Below, in pieces: positions 858 through 13,113 of a stretch of 51,873 bases of DNA. The stretch lies in assembly GCA_964645245.1 (NCBI GenBank), contig CAZYBS010000005.1, positions 1-51,873 on the forward strand, read 5' to 3'. Position numbers and translations under genes: made by a program. The notes beneath the pieces are model-generated. The model saw only the letters and a list, made by a program, of their open reading frames with translations, had not been told where the DNA came from and searched no databases. The stretch comes from an uncultured Candidatus Saccharibacteria bacterium. GTDB lineage: Bacteria > Patescibacteriota > Minisyncoccia > Phycocordibacterales > UBA9973. Numbering within the stretch: the stretch's first letter is position 1; each line of letters opens with the position of its first letter.

Positions 858-1016
858 TTTCTAAAAAATTAATGTTACACCTCCTCCTTACAGGAGCTGG
901 TCACGGATATTTTTCTGCTGAAAAATTCCGCTACCCCGTCTCGTGCCGTCGCACTCCGACCCTGAAATACTTATCGCATTCCAGCACTCATTGGACTTTT
1001 TTGTTATACTCATTCC

Positions 1017-1049
1017 ATGAAACTTCTTCTTACGTCCAGCGGAATTTAA
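1017..1049 (+). pseudogene. 5' stub of a peptidase E (S51)-like gene, MKLLLTSSGI*
   Basis: TGtTATACT lies 6 nt before the ATG; the 10 codons resemble the MKLLLTS.GI N-terminus of S51 peptidases, then TAA. Confidence 0.5.
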
Positions 1050-1087
1050 GTTAAGGATTAGAAGAAATAATTTGATATAATAACATT

Positions 1088-1441
1088 ATGACTAACGGAG
1101 ACGCATTTTTCTTGGTTGTTTTAGGGGTCATTGCGGCCACTAGGCTTTTTCTACTAACGAAGGTTGCTAGTCCAACAATAAAGGGTTTTCGCGTGCGTCA
1201 TTACATGTATGGCTTGGTATTAATTGTTTTGGCTTTTTTAATCAACAATATAACAATCTACGCTATAGGTTTTGCTTTATTTATAGACGAACTGCCATTG
1301 ATTTTGCTCAAAGGACCTGGCCACAAAGAGGAACATTGGAGAGGGTACGAGGATTACTATGCACCATGGTGTGTCGCTGGTGTTTTAGTTCTCATTTTTC
1401 TAACCTATCTTTTTAGAAATATAATTTCAGGATTAATATAA
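1088..1441 (+). CDS. small multi-pass membrane protein
   Basis: About four hydrophobic segments, RVRHYMYG and FIDE motifs; extended -10 TGaTATAAT 6 nt upstream. Confidence 0.8.
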   Translation: MTNGDAFFLVVLGVIAATRLFLLTKVASPTIKGFRVRHYMYGLVLIVLAFLINNITIYAIGFALFIDELPLILLKGPGHKEEHWRGYEDYYAPWCVAGVLVLIFLTYLFRNIISGLI

Positions 1442-1444
1442 ATA

Positions 1445-1471
1445 AAAAAAGCCATATTTTATGGCTTTTTT
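1445..1471. terminator. intrinsic terminator
   Basis: AAAAAAGCCAT-atttt-ATGGCTTTTTT directly after the stop codon. Confidence 0.8.
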
Positions 1472-1512
1472 AGATTGCTTAACTTTTTTAATTCTATAGT
1501 TTATAATGGAAT

Positions 1513-1672
1513 GTGAGGGGTGCTGTGAAGGCCGTTCTCAAATTTGTGGACCTAGTTGCTCCTAGCGCTAGGTCCAGTTGAAAACGAGACCCTAGCACCC
1601 CTCCCTCAGACTTGCTCTTCGCTCTCTCATCGTTTCGCCCGTTTCGTCTCTACGAACCGGGCTTCGTTTTTT
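1513..1672 (+). ncRNA. candidate structured small RNA (unit 1)
   Basis: TATAAT at 1502-1507; rod hairpin 1515-1603 (GAGGGGTGCT/AGCACCCCTC, CGTTCTCAA/TTGAAAACG, TGGACCTAG/CTAGGTCCA); terminator-like hairpin 1637-1662 plus T tract; no credible ORF. Confidence 0.55.
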
Positions 1673-1690
1673 ACATCGAGTATTTGATTC

Positions 1691-1723
1691 GCAAAAAAGC
1701 CTTATTTTATAAGGCTTTTTTGC
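1691..1723. terminator. bidirectional intrinsic terminator
   Basis: GCAAAAAAGCCTTAT-ttt-ATAAGGCTTTTTTGC, a perfect 15-bp stem. Confidence 0.8.
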
Positions 1724-1727
1724 TTGC

Positions 1728-1756
1728 TTGACTTTGTGAGCCCGATAGTATATAAT
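1728..1756 (+). promoter_or_regulatory. near-consensus sigma70 promoter
   Basis: TTGACT-17 nt-TATAAT. Confidence 0.8.
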
Positions 1757-1763
1757 CTAGAGT

Positions 1764-1839
1764 TGAAGAGGGGGGTATGTCGGTACATCGGCGGGGGTAA
1801 ATCGCGGACCCTTGGATGTAGGCGTATCCCTCCTCTTCA
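1764..1839 (+). ncRNA. structured 5' leader hairpin (unit 2)
   Basis: TGAAGAGGGGGG/CCCTCCTCTTCA, TATGTC/GGCGTA and TACATC/GATGTA stack into a 76-nt rod starting 7 nt after the -10 box. Confidence 0.55.
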
Positions 1840-1874
1840 GATCTTAGTCCTTTCGTTTTTGATGGGAGAATTTT

Positions 1875-2012
1875 ATGACTTTTGCTCAAAGGAGGGCGTG
1901 GGCGGCCCGACAGCATACTTTCGATAAGTACGCATGGAAGGTCGCGTTGGCGCTCTTCGCCACGGCAGCGCTAATCGGGGGGCTCAACCTCCTGATTATC
2001 CGCGGGCATTAG
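1875..2012 (+). CDS. 45-aa single-TM peptide MTFAQRRAWAARQHTFDKYAWKVALALFATAALIGGLNLLIIRGH (absent from the ORF track)
   Basis: SD-like GGGAGA just upstream, cationic N-terminus plus a 20-aa hydrophobic helix, located between a promoter and a terminator. Confidence 0.6.
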   Translation: MTFAQRRAWAARQHTFDKYAWKVALALFATAALIGGLNLLIIRGH

Positions 2013-2021
2013 CATCGTCGT

Positions 2022-2064
2022 TGGGCTCGAGTTCGCACATGCGGACCGAGCCCATTCGTTTTTT
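2022..2064 (+). terminator. intrinsic terminator of unit 2
   Basis: TGGGCTCG...CGAGCCCA stem followed by TTCGTTTTTT. Confidence 0.7.
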
Positions 2065-2093
2065 ATTGCGCTTTTTTATGTTATTATGTCTTT

Positions 2094-2876
2094 ATGACTT
2101 GGGCTCTTAGACGGCAAATTTTTTATATAGGCATACTCATTTTATTTTTTTCTGTCTTCGGTTTTTTGGTAGTTTCTCCCAACCTCATGGAGACGCCGAC
2201 CTGTGCAGACAATAAGCAAAATGGGGATGAAGCGGGGGTGGATTGCGGAGGGTTATGCGCTAAGGCATGTCTTTTCCAAGTGGATAAAATTTCAATTCTC
2301 TGGACCCGTTCTTTTAAGGTTATTCCCGGACGTTACAATGCTGTCGCTTATTTAGAGAATCATAATAAAAATACTGCGGTTAATAAAATAAATTACAGAT
2401 TTCGTTTTGCTGATAAAAATAATGTTTATATAGGCAAGCGCGAAGGCAGCACTTCTATTCCTCCGTCAGGCAAGTTTGCTGTTTTTGAGCCGGGTATAGA
2501 TATTGGGAATTCTATTCCTGTTTATACTACTTTTGAGTTTACGCAAATACCGGAGTGGATTCAAGTTTCACCAGAAAAAATCAATCAATTAGAAGTTTTA
2601 GTTTCAAACATAACTCTGACTAATGAGGAAAATAGTCCGGTACTCTCGGCTACAATAAAAAATAATTCGTTCTTTGTCATCCCGGAGATAGATATAGTTG
2701 CTATTTTATATGACGCCAATCGCAATGCTGTTTCCGCTAGCCGCACTTATTTAGATTCCCTGGCCGGAGAGGAAGAGAGAAATGTCAATTTTACTTGGCC
2801 AGAGCCTTTGCCCGGCAAGGTTATTGCTAAAGAAATAATTCCTATGTATAACATCTTTTTGGTCAAGTTAAAGTAG
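2094..2876 (+). CDS. membrane-anchored hypothetical protein with a CxDNxQNGDExGVDCGGxC motif
   Basis: N-terminal TM segment, Cys-rich motif, two beta-rich domains. Confidence 0.85.
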   Translation: MTWALRRQIFYIGILILFFSVFGFLVVSPNLMETPTCADNKQNGDEAGVDCGGLCAKACLFQVDKISILWTRSFKVIPGRYNAVAYLENHNKNTAVNKINYRFRFADKNNVYIGKREGSTSIPPSGKFAVFEPGIDIGNSIPVYTTFEFTQIPEWIQVSPEKINQLEVLVSNITLTNEENSPVLSATIKNNSFFVIPEIDIVAILYDANRNAVSASRTYLDSLAGEEERNVNFTWPEPLPGKVIAKEIIPMYNIFLVKLK

Positions 2877-2879
2877 TTT

Positions 2880-4010
2880 ATGGCGGAAAAAGCTCTTAAC
2901 AAAATAGATTGGCTTTTGGTTTTTTTTATACTTCCAATAATTTCTGCAGGGCTGGTAACCATGAAGTCATTCGCGCCCCTAGAAGATGCCGGTGAATTTT
3001 TCAGTAAACAGATTATTTGGATTTTGATAGGTTTTTCTGTTTTTTTTATTTTTTCTTTTATAGATTTTCGTTTTTTGAAGCGCACTGATGTCTTGGTGTT
3101 TATATATCTTTTAACATCTTTAATTCTACTCTCGCTTTTTGTTTTAGGGTATATTTCTCATGGTGCCAAAAGCTGGTTTAACTTTGGCTATTTTTCTTTT
3201 CAGCCAGTTGATATGATGAAACTGGTCTTAGTGCTTATTTTAGCCAAGTATTTTTCTCGCCGTCATGTGGAGATTAGAGACACAAAACACATTTTTATTT
3301 CCGGATTTTACGCACTGATACCTTTGATTTTAGTTTTACTCCAACCTGATTTTGGTTCCGCCATGATTATATTTTTTATCTGGCTGGGCATGGTGCTTGT
3401 TTCTGGGATTTCTAAAATGCACTTGCTTACCGTGTTTGTTTCTGGCGCGCTGATTTTTATATTATTTTGGTTTTTTATTTTTGCGCCATATCAAAAAGCT
3501 CGTATTACTAGTTTTATAAATCCACTGGCTGACATACATGGTTCTGGCTATAATGCCTTTCAATCCACGATTGCGGTGGGTTCAGGGGAAATTACCGGCA
3601 AAGGTTTGGGTTTCGGTACTCAATCGCGGCTGAAATTCTTGCCCCAACCTCAATCTGATTTTATTTTTGCCGCCTACGCTGAAGAGTGGGGCTTAATTGG
3701 TTCTTTTTTAATTCTTTTGCTTTATGGAGTTATTATTTGGAGGATTCTTTATTCTGCCACTCTGGGAGCATATAATTTTGAAATACTTTTTGGCATGGGG
3801 ATTGCTATTTTTTTTATGAGTCATATACTCATAAATATTGGTATGAATTTGGGACTAATGCCGGTGACCGGCATTCCTCTGCCTTTTATGAGTTATGGCG
3901 GCTCGCATCTCTTGACCGAATTTGCCGGTTTGGGGATCCTGATGAGCATGCGCAGATACGCCAGGACTGCGCACAGGGATAAAATGAAAAACGAATTTTT
4001 AGGAGCATGA
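2880..4010 (+). CDS. rodA: SEDS family peptidoglycan glycosyltransferase RodA
   Basis: GAKSW, SFQP, LQPDFG, GYNAFQSTIAVGSG and GIPLPFMSYGGS motifs. Confidence 0.92.
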   Translation: MAEKALNKIDWLLVFFILPIISAGLVTMKSFAPLEDAGEFFSKQIIWILIGFSVFFIFSFIDFRFLKRTDVLVFIYLLTSLILLSLFVLGYISHGAKSWFNFGYFSFQPVDMMKLVLVLILAKYFSRRHVEIRDTKHIFISGFYALIPLILVLLQPDFGSAMIIFFIWLGMVLVSGISKMHLLTVFVSGALIFILFWFFIFAPYQKARITSFINPLADIHGSGYNAFQSTIAVGSGEITGKGLGFGTQSRLKFLPQPQSDFIFAAYAEEWGLIGSFLILLLYGVIIWRILYSATLGAYNFEILFGMGIAIFFMSHILINIGMNLGLMPVTGIPLPFMSYGGSHLLTEFAGLGILMSMRRYARTAHRDKMKNEFLGA

Positions 4011-12530: not shown

Positions 12531-12852
12531 TTGCGGGAGGCCGAATCGAACGGCCGTCTCAAGGTTATGCTTTACCACTTCAGTTTTCACTGCTTCATCC
12601 ACCGGCTGGCGGATTATTTGTGGTCTGGACTATACTATCTCCTTTCTAAAATAAATTAAAGATTAAGGAGTTCGCCATCTAGTCTCTACACATTTATCTC
12701 CGACCTGGGCCGGAAAATTTAGCTCGGAATTGTCTTTCTGTTAGCCGACAGAGAGGATTTCTCCGAATTTGACGAATGCACACCTCTGAGTTTCCCCGGA
12801 GGGGGCCCATATTTTAGTTGAGCCTTGCGAGATGCCTCTTCTCTATCCCGCT
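12531..12852 (-). tRNA. initiator tRNA-fMet(CAT), split by an intron (exons 12852-12821 and 12569-12531)
   Basis: Spliced sequence AGCGGGA TA GAGA AGAGGCA TCTC G CAAGG CT^CAT AA CCTTG AGAC GGCCG TTCGATT CGGCC TCCCGCA A; 1:72 mismatch and A11:U24 are initiator features. Confidence 0.93.
12570..12820 (-). ncRNA. group I self-splicing intron, 251 nt, no ORF
   Basis: P1 GGCU^CA/UGGGCC with U.G at the splice site; core elements AAATTCGGAGAA, AATTCCGAGC, GTAGAGACTAGATGG and GTATAGTCC; terminal G. Confidence 0.92.
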
Positions 12853-12933: not shown

Positions 12934-13004
12934 GCCGGCGTAGTTTAATGGTAAAACAAGAGACTCATAAGCTCTGGAAGATGGTTCGATTCCATCCGTC
13001 GGCA
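12934..13004 (+). tRNA. tRNA with CAT anticodon (elongator Met or Ile2)
   Basis: GCCGGCG/CGTCGGC acceptor stem, loop CTCATAA, T arm GATGG-TTCGATT-CCATC. Confidence 0.88.
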
Positions 13005-13041
13005 CAGCTGGATAGTCCAGAGTGTTAAAATTAAAAAGTTT

Positions 13042-13113
13042 GCGGCTGTAGCTCATCGGTAGAGTGCGCCCCTGTCACGGGCGAGGTAGCGGGATCAACA
13101 CCCGTCAGCCGCG
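13042..13113 (+). tRNA. tRNA-Asp(GTC)
   Basis: GCGGCTG/CAGCCGC acceptor stem, CGCCC-CTGTCAC-GGGCG anticodon arm, G73; atypical T loop ATCAACA. Confidence 0.9.

Follow-up and report, generated by a model that had tools for sequence, protein, structure and literature searches.

A structured ORF-less RNA and a GC-rich small-ORF cassette in a variable gap beside the rRNA operon of a tiny groundwater bacterium

Genomic setting and anatomy of the two units

The DNA analysed here (the window; contig CAZYBS010000005.1, 51,873 nucleotides) belongs to a tiny groundwater bacterium with an AT-rich 648-kb genome. A gap near its start is flanked by an rRNA operon (the 23S end and 5S, positions 1–366) and by a conserved gene encoding a 260-residue protein, followed by rodA. 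The content of this gap is variable—relatives differ in the DNA that lies 5' of the 260-aa gene. In the window, two mini-genes occupy it (Table 1), and both are real: unit 1 would give rise to a structured RNA without a protein, and the product of unit 2 is most likely a 45-residue membrane peptide. The original prediction of twin structured units, each built of a promoter, a rod hairpin, a linker and a terminator, was confirmed for every element, as was the presence in unit 2 alone of an ORF, which follows an SD-like site and encodes a cationic peptide containing a single hydrophobic helix; unit 1 is ORF-less.

Table 1. Features of the two units and of the adjoining terminators (positions in the window).
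Feature	Position	Strand	Details and basis
AT-rich bidirectional terminator hairpin	1445..1471	.	Closes the upstream 117-aa ORF (1088-1441); terminator-like site in scan
Unit 1 promoter, TTAACT-17-TATAAT	1479..1507	+	10/12 matches; conserved block in comparison with G080
Unit 1 5'-end rod hairpin	1515..1603	+	Purine-rich 5' arm GAGGGGUGCU, pyrimidine-rich 3' arm AGCACCCCUC; folds
Unit 1 unpaired pyrimidine-rich linker	1604..1636	+	Contains UCUCUCAUC at 1623-1631; predicted fold
Unit 1 terminator	1637..1672	+	Hairpin 1637-1662 plus UUCGUUUUUU; fold; best-conserved portion of unit 1
AT-rich hairpin (A6-GCC...GGC-T6), second bidirectional terminator, between the units	1693..1721	.	Sequence; equivalents in relatives
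Unit 2 promoter, TTGACT-17-TATAAT	1728..1756	+	11/12 matches
Unit 2 leader rod hairpin	1763..1840	+	5' arm GAAGAGGGGGG, 3' arm CCCUCCUCUUC; counterpart in unit 2 of G080
Small fold-back hairpin, UCCU (1848-1851):GGGA (1864-1867)	1848..1867	+	U-rich loop holds TTCGTTTTT (1852-1860)
SD-like GGGAGA	1864..1869	+	5 nt before the ATG
45-aa ORF	1875..2012	+	N-terminal portion cationic; single hydrophobic helix at residues 26-42; GC 0.59, GC3 0.71
Unit 2 GC-rich terminator hairpin plus UUCGUUUUUU	2019..2064	+	Fold

The two promoters are the best sigma-70-like sites within positions 1000–3000, a region whose three promoter-like sites do not exceed the number in shuffled sequences (mean of 4.6); at the promoter site of unit 2, the GCTTGACTTT...TATAAT block is conserved in relatives. 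Both GC-rich terminators were called from folds, and a simple terminator scan flagged neither. The units also share short sequence motifs, with CAGACTT at 1607–1613 in unit 1 and CAGATCTT at 1838–1845 in unit 2, as well as TTCGTTTTT at 1663–1671 and 2055–2063, a third copy of which lies in the leader of unit 2. Folding set both units apart from shuffled sequences: unit 1 reached –61.6 kcal/mol (z of –4.57, with none of 200 shuffles as good) and unit 2 reached –136.9 kcal/mol (z of –6.42, none of 100 shuffles). Moreover, among the five candidates examined in the genome, only these two pair a strict promoter with a long 5'-terminal hairpin, with hairpin energies of –50.3 and –45.6 kcal/mol against –36.3 kcal/mol for the next candidate.

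Both units are found once in the 648-kb genome, other matches extending over no more than 12–15 nt. GC-rich palindromic mini-elements (RPE-like repeats) were considered and found not to match, as several near-identical copies per genome would be expected of them and each unit is single-copy. No gathering-level match to Rfam 15 was found within 1502–2064; the best sub-threshold scores (at most 22.4 bits, with thresholds of 43–80) cover AT-rich terminator hairpins only, and the alignments at 1693–1721 are of terminator type, all sub-threshold. Additionally, a contig from run X3 spans 1505–1807, carries 3 extra nt behind position 1563 and covers nothing of 1808–2009. The public runs listed as containing this DNA included none of RNA.

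Unit 2 belongs to a class of GC-rich, SD-led cassettes

Native genes of the host genome are mostly leaderless, with 73 TATAAT hexamers (7.2 expected) and 7 GGAGG motifs (6.0 expected), and with the end of the –10 box located 6 nt upstream of the ATG in 54 native genes. An SD-like 4-mer precedes 54 of 556 ORFs, so that the SD-like site of unit 2 is, as predicted, unusual in this genome. All 23 16S rRNA 3' ends that could be read in the order, including 12 in the genus of the host, are devoid of CCUCC and terminate in GGA(A/U)UAAUUCAAUU, the 16S tail of the relatives being GGAAUAAUUCAAUU. The host's own 16S gene is absent from the assembly; judging by these relatives, the host would likewise have lost the anti-SD. 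A subgroup of Parcubacteria is described as having lost the anti-SD in passages of Tsurumaki et al. 2022 (PMC9297842), with which the 16S ends of the relatives agree. As with the Parcubacteria of those passages, the 16S tails (read in relatives) are without CCUCC and the native genes without SD sites; genes that keep SD-like sites, as unit 2 does, find no mention in the passages.

Unit 2 is a member of a class of genes seen both in its own genome and in the genus. Its GC content of 0.59 and GC3 of 0.71 lie far above the host values of 0.407 and 0.385 (± 0.079 for GC3 in the 378 ORFs of at least 200 aa, of which 1.6% reach 0.6), the spacing of its SD-like GGGAGA falls within the 4–10 nt used to delimit the class, and the monocistronic unit has its own promoter (11/12) and its own, fold-called terminator within a variable gap between conserved genes. 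Eleven other GC-rich, SD-led small ORFs with a promoter and a terminator were picked in the same genome, a set that is circular as evidence for the class because the SD was used to select it; among 19 islands chosen by GC content alone, an SD-like site precedes the best ORF in at least six. Cassettes of the class share with unit 2 the promoter, the canonical SD spacing, the high GC and GC3, the terminator and a variable-gap position beside RNA genes, whereas unit 2 differs from them in its very small size (45 aa), its 78-nt leader hairpin and its ORF-less twin. Our literature search found no paper describing GC-rich, SD-led, self-contained cassettes of Parcubacteria without an anti-SD.

Phage 'morons' are autonomous inserts consisting of a promoter, a gene and a terminator, and unit 2 is like them a single gene with its own promoter and terminator, differing in composition from its surroundings and placed between conserved genes. 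Unlike morons, it lacks a phage context, 50,697 phage records gave no match, and at its site conservation across species extends to the promoter and the AT hairpin but not to the ORF.

A hotspot of putative small membrane-peptide ORFs

Between the 5S rRNA and the 260-aa gene lies a hotspot of small-ORF gain and loss. Among the 11 relatives whose regions 5' of the 260-aa gene were read, eight carry SD-led small-ORF cassettes, one has GC-rich palindromes only and two have nothing. A hydrophobic helix (a 17-residue stretch with a mean hydropathy of at least 1.7) is present in 11 of the 12 small ORFs at the site. These ORFs are non-homologous, save for the pair in G013 and G018, which share 43% identity (E of 5e-13) and differ by an in-frame indel. 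GC3 is highest and GC2 lowest in 10 of the 11 site ORFs measured in relatives, the exception being the 29-aa ORF of G080.

The tandem two-unit design recurs in that second species, G080, in the order unit 1, AT hairpin, promoter, leader hairpin, U-run, GGAGG, ORF, terminator and 260-aa gene. Promoters, hairpin bases and terminators align between G080 and the window, the ORFs are unrelated, and in G080 a fold-back of CCUC on GAGG occupies the corresponding position. Joint presence of the two units is limited to the window and G080; a third species, G066, has unit 1 without unit 2.

The 45-aa peptide carries a net charge of +5 and has a mean hydropathy of 2.21 over the 17 residues of its helix, and its ORF is the sole one behind an SD-like site at the two units. 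Searches of 5.8 billion clusters, of 1.84 billion representatives (with one spurious match in a repetitive 2471-aa protein) and of the ESM Atlas (best score of 0.89) found no homologue, Pfam and PADLOC returned no match to the peptide, and a DNA-level search of the phage records found no match. In view of the missing homologue, the coding status of the ORF rests on composition and on analogy with the other cassettes, which make coding plausible: GC by codon position is 0.58/0.49/0.71, a pattern specific to the ORF frame.

Could unit 2 be a structured non-coding RNA with an accidental ORF? The very strong fold would fit, as would the conservation of the flanking signals around an unconserved ORF, the relatives' ribosomes without an anti-SD to read the SD-like site and the lack of a protein homologue in our searches. 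However, the GC pattern is tied to the ORF frame, the ORF encodes a hydrophobic helix as do nearly all the others at the site, two of the site ORFs (G013 and G018) are demonstrably conserved as proteins and no Rfam family matches the unit; we regard an RNA-only unit 2 as very improbable. Read as a gene, unit 2 would produce a 45-aa single-pass cationic membrane peptide. Its long 5'-terminal hairpin would probably stabilise the mRNA, and the UCCU:GGGA fold-back—the weak pairing of the SD in cis that had been predicted, and which is present in the predicted fold—would probably gate access to the start region.

Pairing between the two units does not exceed chance

Type I toxin–antitoxin systems such as TisB/IstR-1, ZorO/OrzO and Hok/Sok combine, like the two units, a hydrophobic peptide gene with a structured leader that folds on the ribosome-binding region and a small ORF-less RNA gene alongside. 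The original prediction saw a resemblance to such a pair. In a module of this type, the 45-aa peptide would be a membrane toxin and the unit 1 linker (UCUCUCAUC) would pair with the SD region (GAUGGGAGA) and block translation. Several features speak for such a reading, namely the small (<~60 aa) cationic peptide with one hydrophobic helix, the long structured leader with its SD folded back in cis (also in G080), the adjoining ORF-less RNA and its unpaired, pyrimidine-rich linker, the joint occurrence of both units in two of the three species with unit 1, and the 9-bp pairing with one G.U that TCTCTCATC (1623–1631) and GATGGGAGA (1861–1869) can indeed form.

The caution attached to that pairing, i.e., that it is short and could be chance, proved well placed. 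The linker–SD duplex has an energy of –14.6 kcal/mol against –11.6 ± 2.1 kcal/mol for shuffled linkers, 9% of which are as good, and in G080 the duplex (–9.9 kcal/mol) is weaker than the shuffle mean of –11.7 kcal/mol, with 76% of shuffles as good. Forty-two other genomic 9-mers pair equally well with the target at 1861–1869, and the energy of the whole-length duplex between unit 1 and unit 2 is meaningless, because shuffles did as well. The affinity of the linker for SD-led starts is purely compositional (–15.3 for shuffled and –15.3 for observed linkers). The best linker–SD duplex comprises 9–10 bp rather than the extended complementarity (~18 nt or more) or the overlap of type I pairs, and no antisense promoter-like site was found on the minus strand of the units in a scan of 1000–3000.

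Unlike in the known systems, the units do not overlap in antisense, their complementarity is neither extended nor conserved, the RNA gene lies upstream of the peptide gene in tandem on the same strand, and the RNA and similar peptides occur separately: G066 has unit 1 alone, and eight relatives have comparable cassettes alone. The peptide is unconserved and without a homologue, and the ORFs at the site in G080 are unrelated to it. The toxin–antitoxin reading had been staked on conservation of the ORF and of the complementarity. With an unconserved ORF and a homologue that lacks the complementarity, it fails on these terms wherever they are testable, and we consider it quite improbable. What stands of the proposed undescribed sRNA–peptide module is two undescribed structured units, predicted to be transcribed separately; the role of unit 1 as an antisense antitoxin is not supported.

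Distribution and possible origin of unit 1

Unit 1 is an undescribed ORF-less RNA. It was found in three of the 212 genus genomes (the host, G066 and G080), none of which has an ORF in it, and its rod-hairpin design is present in all three. The homologues fold with z-scores of –4.98 (G066) and –2.02 (G080), the latter a slight improvement on shuffles, of which 7 of 200 were as good. Conservation is highest over the linker end and the terminator, above the surrounding DNA, and one stem pair changes from U-A to C-G among the three species known; the linker sequence varies among them. A model of the 3' half, run on 151 genomes, recovered nothing beyond the three known copies, a DNA search of both units against 60 relatives gave matches to the AT-rich terminator and the promoter only, and a metagenome pattern scan returned the G066 and G080 species again and nothing further. 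A match in G023 was rejected since it sits in unrelated coding DNA, and a pattern match in G088 since it is an ordinary gene terminator.

Identity with a known RNA was also considered. RNase P RNA and tmRNA are both located elsewhere in the genome, which rules them out for either unit. Neither 6S RNA nor SRP RNA was found when searched for (the SRP proteins are missing too), and a distribution over three of 212 genus genomes is far too narrow for unit 1 to be an essential RNA such as these.

Unit 1 resembles unit 2 minus the SD and the ORF, and the two share the hairpin, the CAGA(U)CUU linker and a terminator preceded by CAUCGU and followed by ...UUCGUUUUUU. The common origin of the hairpins is a by-eye reading of five sequences, whose MAFFT alignment is unconvincing and structurally inconsistent. 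Together with the location of the site in a gain-and-loss hotspot, this resemblance could mark unit 1 as what is left of an earlier cassette, decaying after loss of the ORF and now without a function of its own. In the source sample, one contig of lower depth may skip 1508–1634 (joint 1507>1635), weak evidence with 33 letters on the shorter side. However, three species whose neighbouring 260-aa proteins share only 62–73% identity all have an intact promoter, hairpin design and terminator, the end of the linker and the terminator are conserved above the surrounding DNA, and the ORF-less state is old and stable, given that none of the three species has an ORF; mere decay is thus unlikely.

Unit 1 could also be a trans-acting sRNA whose pyrimidine-rich strand targets purine-rich SD-like leaders across the whole class, and not its neighbour specifically. 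Its linker pairs with 12 cassette starts (mean of –15.3 kcal/mol) better than with 378 native ones (mean of –8.6 kcal/mol), another cassette (C11:14050) also has its SD position occupied by GAUGGGAG, unit 1 is kept in G066 without unit 2, and its 3' part is strongly conserved. Yet shuffled linkers are as good as the real one, which indicates that there is no sequence-specific seed; moreover, the linker differs among the three species, and the class is widespread while unit 1 is confined to three genomes. These observations make class-wide targeting distinctly unlikely.

Units 1 and 2 as probably independent transcription units

Weighing these lines of evidence, we consider it fairly probable that units 1 and 2 are two independent transcription units, unit 2 being a GC-rich, SD-led cassette gene and unit 1 an ORF-less RNA gene of the same hairpin design. 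The pair would occupy the variable gap between the rRNA operon and the 260-aa gene. Unit 2 would be a small-protein gene of a lineage-wide class defined by its own promoter, SD-like motif, ORF and GC-rich terminator, with such cassettes scattered through an AT-rich genome that uses mostly leaderless mRNAs. Unit 1 would most likely derive from a unit-2-like cassette and have been kept as a non-coding RNA, its transcript running from the purine-rich 5' arm through the pyrimidine-rich 3' arm and the pyrimidine-rich single strand to the conserved terminator. Any action of this RNA would be independent of antisense pairing with unit 2.

A more speculative scheme, which we hold to be extremely improbable, has the rod hairpins replace the missing SD:anti-SD duplex, such that a preformed helix recruits the ribosome or a factor and unit 1 acts as a shape-mimicking decoy. 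The 3' arms of the rod hairpins (window, CCCUCCUC; G080, CACCUCCU) are paired to purine-rich, SD-like 5' arms, and a second, small helix of the CCUC:GAGG type lies at the canonical distance from the AUG. If this scheme were true, a leadered mRNA would bring its own anti-SD strand in a lineage whose 16S rRNA lost CCUCC, and unit 1, as an ORF-less copy of the helix, would titrate the factor by shape mimicry instead of antisense pairing—a mechanism of translation start not described so far.

Implications for the lineage

Read as two independent transcription units, the locus offers a clear example of an SD-led, GC-rich gene in a lineage where the ribosomes of relatives have no reader for the SD, and it illustrates how a tempting toxin–antitoxin look-alike fails against comparative controls. 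Unit 1 is a compact and well-delimited candidate RNA gene with a conserved core, in a group, the Candidate Phyla Radiation (CPR), whose small RNAs and small proteins have hardly been characterised. Finally, the replacement of one small membrane peptide by another, unrelated one behind a conserved promoter suggests fast-evolving, membrane-active products, and the peptides of this hotspot might serve competition, host contact or phage exclusion.

Architecture of the two transcription units

The source genome comprises 648 kb in 13 contigs (GC about 0.40, completeness 98%), and the window represents its contig C5. Two units—unit 1, a structured RNA with no ORF, and unit 2, which carries a 45-aa ORF—lie in this order after the 23S rRNA end, the 5S rRNA and two unannotated ORFs, followed by a conserved 260-aa gene and rodA/ftsW. 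The original prediction described a promoter, hairpin, linker and terminator in both units with an ORF in unit 2, and the promoter sites, folds and positions bear out this description.

Features at the start of the window, with coordinates and basis
Feature	Position	Basis or match
23S rRNA end and 5S rRNA	start of window	
Unannotated ORF	432-857	no Pfam match
Unannotated ORF	1088-1441	no Pfam match
Unit 1 promoter, TTAACT-17-TATAAT	1479-1507	
Unit 1 rod hairpin, 89 nt	1515-1603	fold
Unit 1 linker, 33 nt, unpaired, pyrimidine-rich	3' of rod hairpin	fold
Unit 1 terminator hairpin, then UUCGUUUUUU	1637-1662 (hairpin)	fold
AT-rich hairpin between units 1 and 2	1693-1721	
Unit 2 promoter, TTGACT-17-TATAAT	1728-1756	
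Unit 2 rod hairpin, 78 nt	1763-1840	fold
Unit 2 short hairpin, UCCU paired to GGGA of the SD-like GGGAGA	1848-1867	fold
Unit 2 45-aa ORF	1875-2012	
Unit 2 GC-rich terminator, UUCGUUUUUU at its end		fold
Conserved 260-aa gene	2094-2876	no Pfam match
rodA/ftsW	2880-4010	PF01098, E 2.4e-91

Both units folded far better than dinucleotide shuffles (z = -4.57 for unit 1 and -6.42 for unit 2), GC reached 0.50-0.63 across them versus about 0.35 nearby, and they held by far the strongest 5'-terminal hairpins among five genome-wide candidates with a strict promoter followed by GC-rich sequence. Together with the anatomy, these results confirm the structural observation. The GC-rich terminators of both units went unflagged by a simple terminator scan, no Rfam family matched either unit, and no second copy of either was found in the 648-kb genome. 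Elsewhere in the window, the group I intron family RF00028 matched above threshold, at 57.2 bits, on the minus strand at 12610-12830, adjoining a tRNA gene cluster on the other strand (12934-13113).

SD-led cassettes in a genome without SD use

An SD-like 4-mer precedes 54 of the 556 ORFs in the source genome, and GGAGG was observed before genes 7 times versus 6.0 expected. TATAAT, by comparison, occurred 73 times versus 7.2 expected, and in 54 genes the -10 box stops 6 nt ahead of the ATG. Native genes thus make no use of an SD, and those with TATAAT just upstream are taken to yield leaderless mRNAs; against this background the SD-like site of unit 2 is indeed unusual, as had been proposed. 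The 16S rRNA of this genome is unassembled, and 3' ends were taken from relatives. In all 23 readable cases (12 of them congeneric, 11 from different genera within the order; three more loci lacked the anchor motif) the end reads GGA(A/U)UAAUUCAAUU with no CCUCC, which fits the anti-SD loss reported for part of the Parcubacteria (PMC9297842). Conservation extends to the tail found in place of the anti-SD, which reads GGA(A/U)UAAUUCAAUUUGAA in 23 of 23 (L078-L103); its partial complement GAATTA was counted 15 times versus 5.1 expected within the 25 nt preceding native start codons.

Unit 2 is one of several GC-rich, self-contained cassettes with their own promoter, SD-like motif, small ORF and GC-rich terminator. 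Eleven other such ORFs were found in the genome, a choice that used the SD and is therefore circular; when 19 islands were chosen on GC alone, the best ORF was SD-led in at least six. Another twin arrangement, with both units coding, was seen in the source genome (G000) at C10:14685-15351, where tandem GC-rich SD-led ORFs of 70 and 91 aa each have a promoter-like box and a GC-rich terminator. GC-rich SD-led small ORFs also stand directly beside tRNA genes (C1:113932-114051, C4:9132-9350 and C6:48320-48526), resembling unit 2 and its analogues, which come after 5S rRNA. Among the titles and abstract openings searched, there was no account of SD-led genes in anti-SD-less Parcubacteria, of type I systems in CPR or of small RNAs in Patescibacteria.

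A separate observation concerns the signal recognition particle pathway, which was not found in the source genome or in 40 related genomes of the order. Searches of the 98% complete source genome found neither SRP RNA (RF00169, RF01854) nor the SRP54 GTPase domain (PF00448), M domain (PF02978), ffh (TIGR00959) or ftsY (TIGR00064), with controls matching in 12-14 of 14 known genomes. Of these 41 genomes, none yielded RF00169, and five gave weak P-loop-only matches to PF00448; the titles and abstract openings searched held no account of such a pattern.

A hotspot for small membrane proteins upstream of the 260-aa gene

The 45-aa peptide has a single hydrophobic stretch (residues 26-42) and a net charge of +5. 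Its ORF shows GC values of 0.58/0.49/0.71 by codon position—the pattern expected for a GC-rich coding frame, and far from the host GC3 of 0.385 ± 0.079. The search for homologues, proposed as a check, was negative in relatives and protein databases alike: matches in 60 relatives were limited to E 0.05-0.6 inside ORFs of 498-598 aa, and no homologue was found for the ORF DNA in 211 other genus genomes or for the peptide in 5.8 billion protein clusters, the ESM Atlas (best score 0.89), Pfam or PADLOC. The sole match among 1.84 billion representatives, a repetitive 2471-aa protein, was rejected as spurious.

The 260-aa gene is present in 54 of the 61 genomes searched, and the DNA upstream of it was extracted and GC-profiled in 29 relatives (11 read fully, 18 as GC profiles). 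Eight of the 11 regions read contain one or two GC-rich units of unit 2-like design, composed of an AT-rich hairpin, a GCTTGACTTT...TATAAT promoter, a small ORF with a GGAGG-type motif 5-10 nt ahead of its ATG or GTG, and a GC-rich terminator; of the remainder, one has GC-rich palindromes alone and two have nothing. The palindromes, two perfect ones in place of an ORF cassette, lie in L052 (G012). The small ORFs are mutually unrelated, save for the G013/G018 pair (43% identity, E 5e-13, in-frame indel). GC3 was highest and GC2 lowest in 10 of 11 relatives' ORFs measured, the exception being a 29-aa ORF in the relative G080, and a hydrophobic helix occurs in 11 of 12 ORFs at the site, the window's included. 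This shared composition and helix among unrelated ORFs point to a hotspot of unrelated small membrane proteins behind a conserved promoter.

Patchy distribution of unit 1

Relatives of unit 1 were recovered in only two other species (G066 and G080) by every method used, namely BLAST against 212 genus genomes (its own included), a pattern built from its terminator and a covariance model of its 3' half run over 151 genomes; a metagenome scan returned the same two species and nothing further. G080 (260-aa protein identity 72.6%) repeats the whole tandem: unit 1, AT hairpin, promoter, leader hairpin (arms AAGGAGG.../...CACCUCCUCC), U-run, GGAGG, an 84-aa ORF, terminator and the 260-aa gene. Its 29-aa ORF (L074:1949-2035), cationic at its start, with a hydrophobic helix and an SD-like GAGGAG of its own, overlaps the 84-aa ORF at the latter's end, in a different frame, and stops just before the terminator; neither G080 ORF resembles the window's peptide. 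In G066 (62.3%), unit 1 alone separates the 5S rRNA from the 260-aa gene. The distribution is patchy, since the equally close G026 (75%) and G034 (72%) have neither unit.

Within this three-species comparison, unit 1 always takes the form of a rod, followed by a pyrimidine-rich linker left unpaired and then a terminator. None of the copies contains an ORF, and one terminator stem pair changes from U-A to C-G. Pairwise alignment of the window with G080 shows conservation of the promoters, hairpin bases, unit 1 linker end and terminator, and the stretch just past the ORF, but not of the ORF region. Public-run contigs hint at a variant with a 3-nt insertion at 1563, near the apex of the unit 1 hairpin, in a relative where nothing matches the unit 2 ORF, and a low-depth source-sample contig joining 1507 to 1635 hints at another.

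Test of the toxin-antitoxin interpretation

Type I systems are defined by a complementary antitoxin RNA, and unit 1 had been proposed to serve as one by pairing with the SD region of unit 2. The 9-bp pairing exists but is unremarkable. At best, linker and SD region form a duplex of -14.6 kcal/mol versus -11.6 ± 2.1 for composition-preserving linker shuffles, 9% of which are as good, and in G080 the values are -9.9 versus -11.7, with 76% of shuffles as good. Moreover, 42 other genomic 9-mers match or beat the linker site in pairing with GAUGGGAGA. Among start regions, the linker does favour those of 12 cassettes over 378 native ones in pairing; this preference reflects composition rather than a seed, because shuffled linkers do exactly as well. 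No promoter-like site was found antisense to either unit, and co-occurrence is not strict, with unit 1 lacking unit 2 in G066 and peptide cassettes lacking unit 1 in eight relatives. Since the pairing, antisense-promoter and co-occurrence tests were all negative, the complementary RNA that would mark a type I system appears to be absent here, and the toxin-antitoxin interpretation is, on sequence grounds, not supported.

Proposed roles of the two units

The two units are autonomous and of conserved design, unit 2 belongs to the cassette class, and no specific complementarity connects them. Translation of unit 2 would yield a small membrane peptide; the 5'-terminal hairpin may protect its mRNA, and the small UCCU:GGGA helix (CCUC:GAGG in G080) could control access to the start region. 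In the boldest reading, such purine:pyrimidine helices would stand in for the SD:anti-SD duplex, with unit 1 as a decoy. Cassettes whose leaders are short and lack such a helix argue against this substitution as a general rule. As for the origin of unit 1, the hairpin design, the CAGA(U)CUU linker, the CAUCGU before the terminator and the UUCGUUUUUU after it are common to both units, suggesting that unit 1 derives from a unit-2-like cassette and was retained as a non-coding RNA. Judged from their sequences, the two units appear to be a clean example of an unexplained cassette class together with a new ORF-less RNA.
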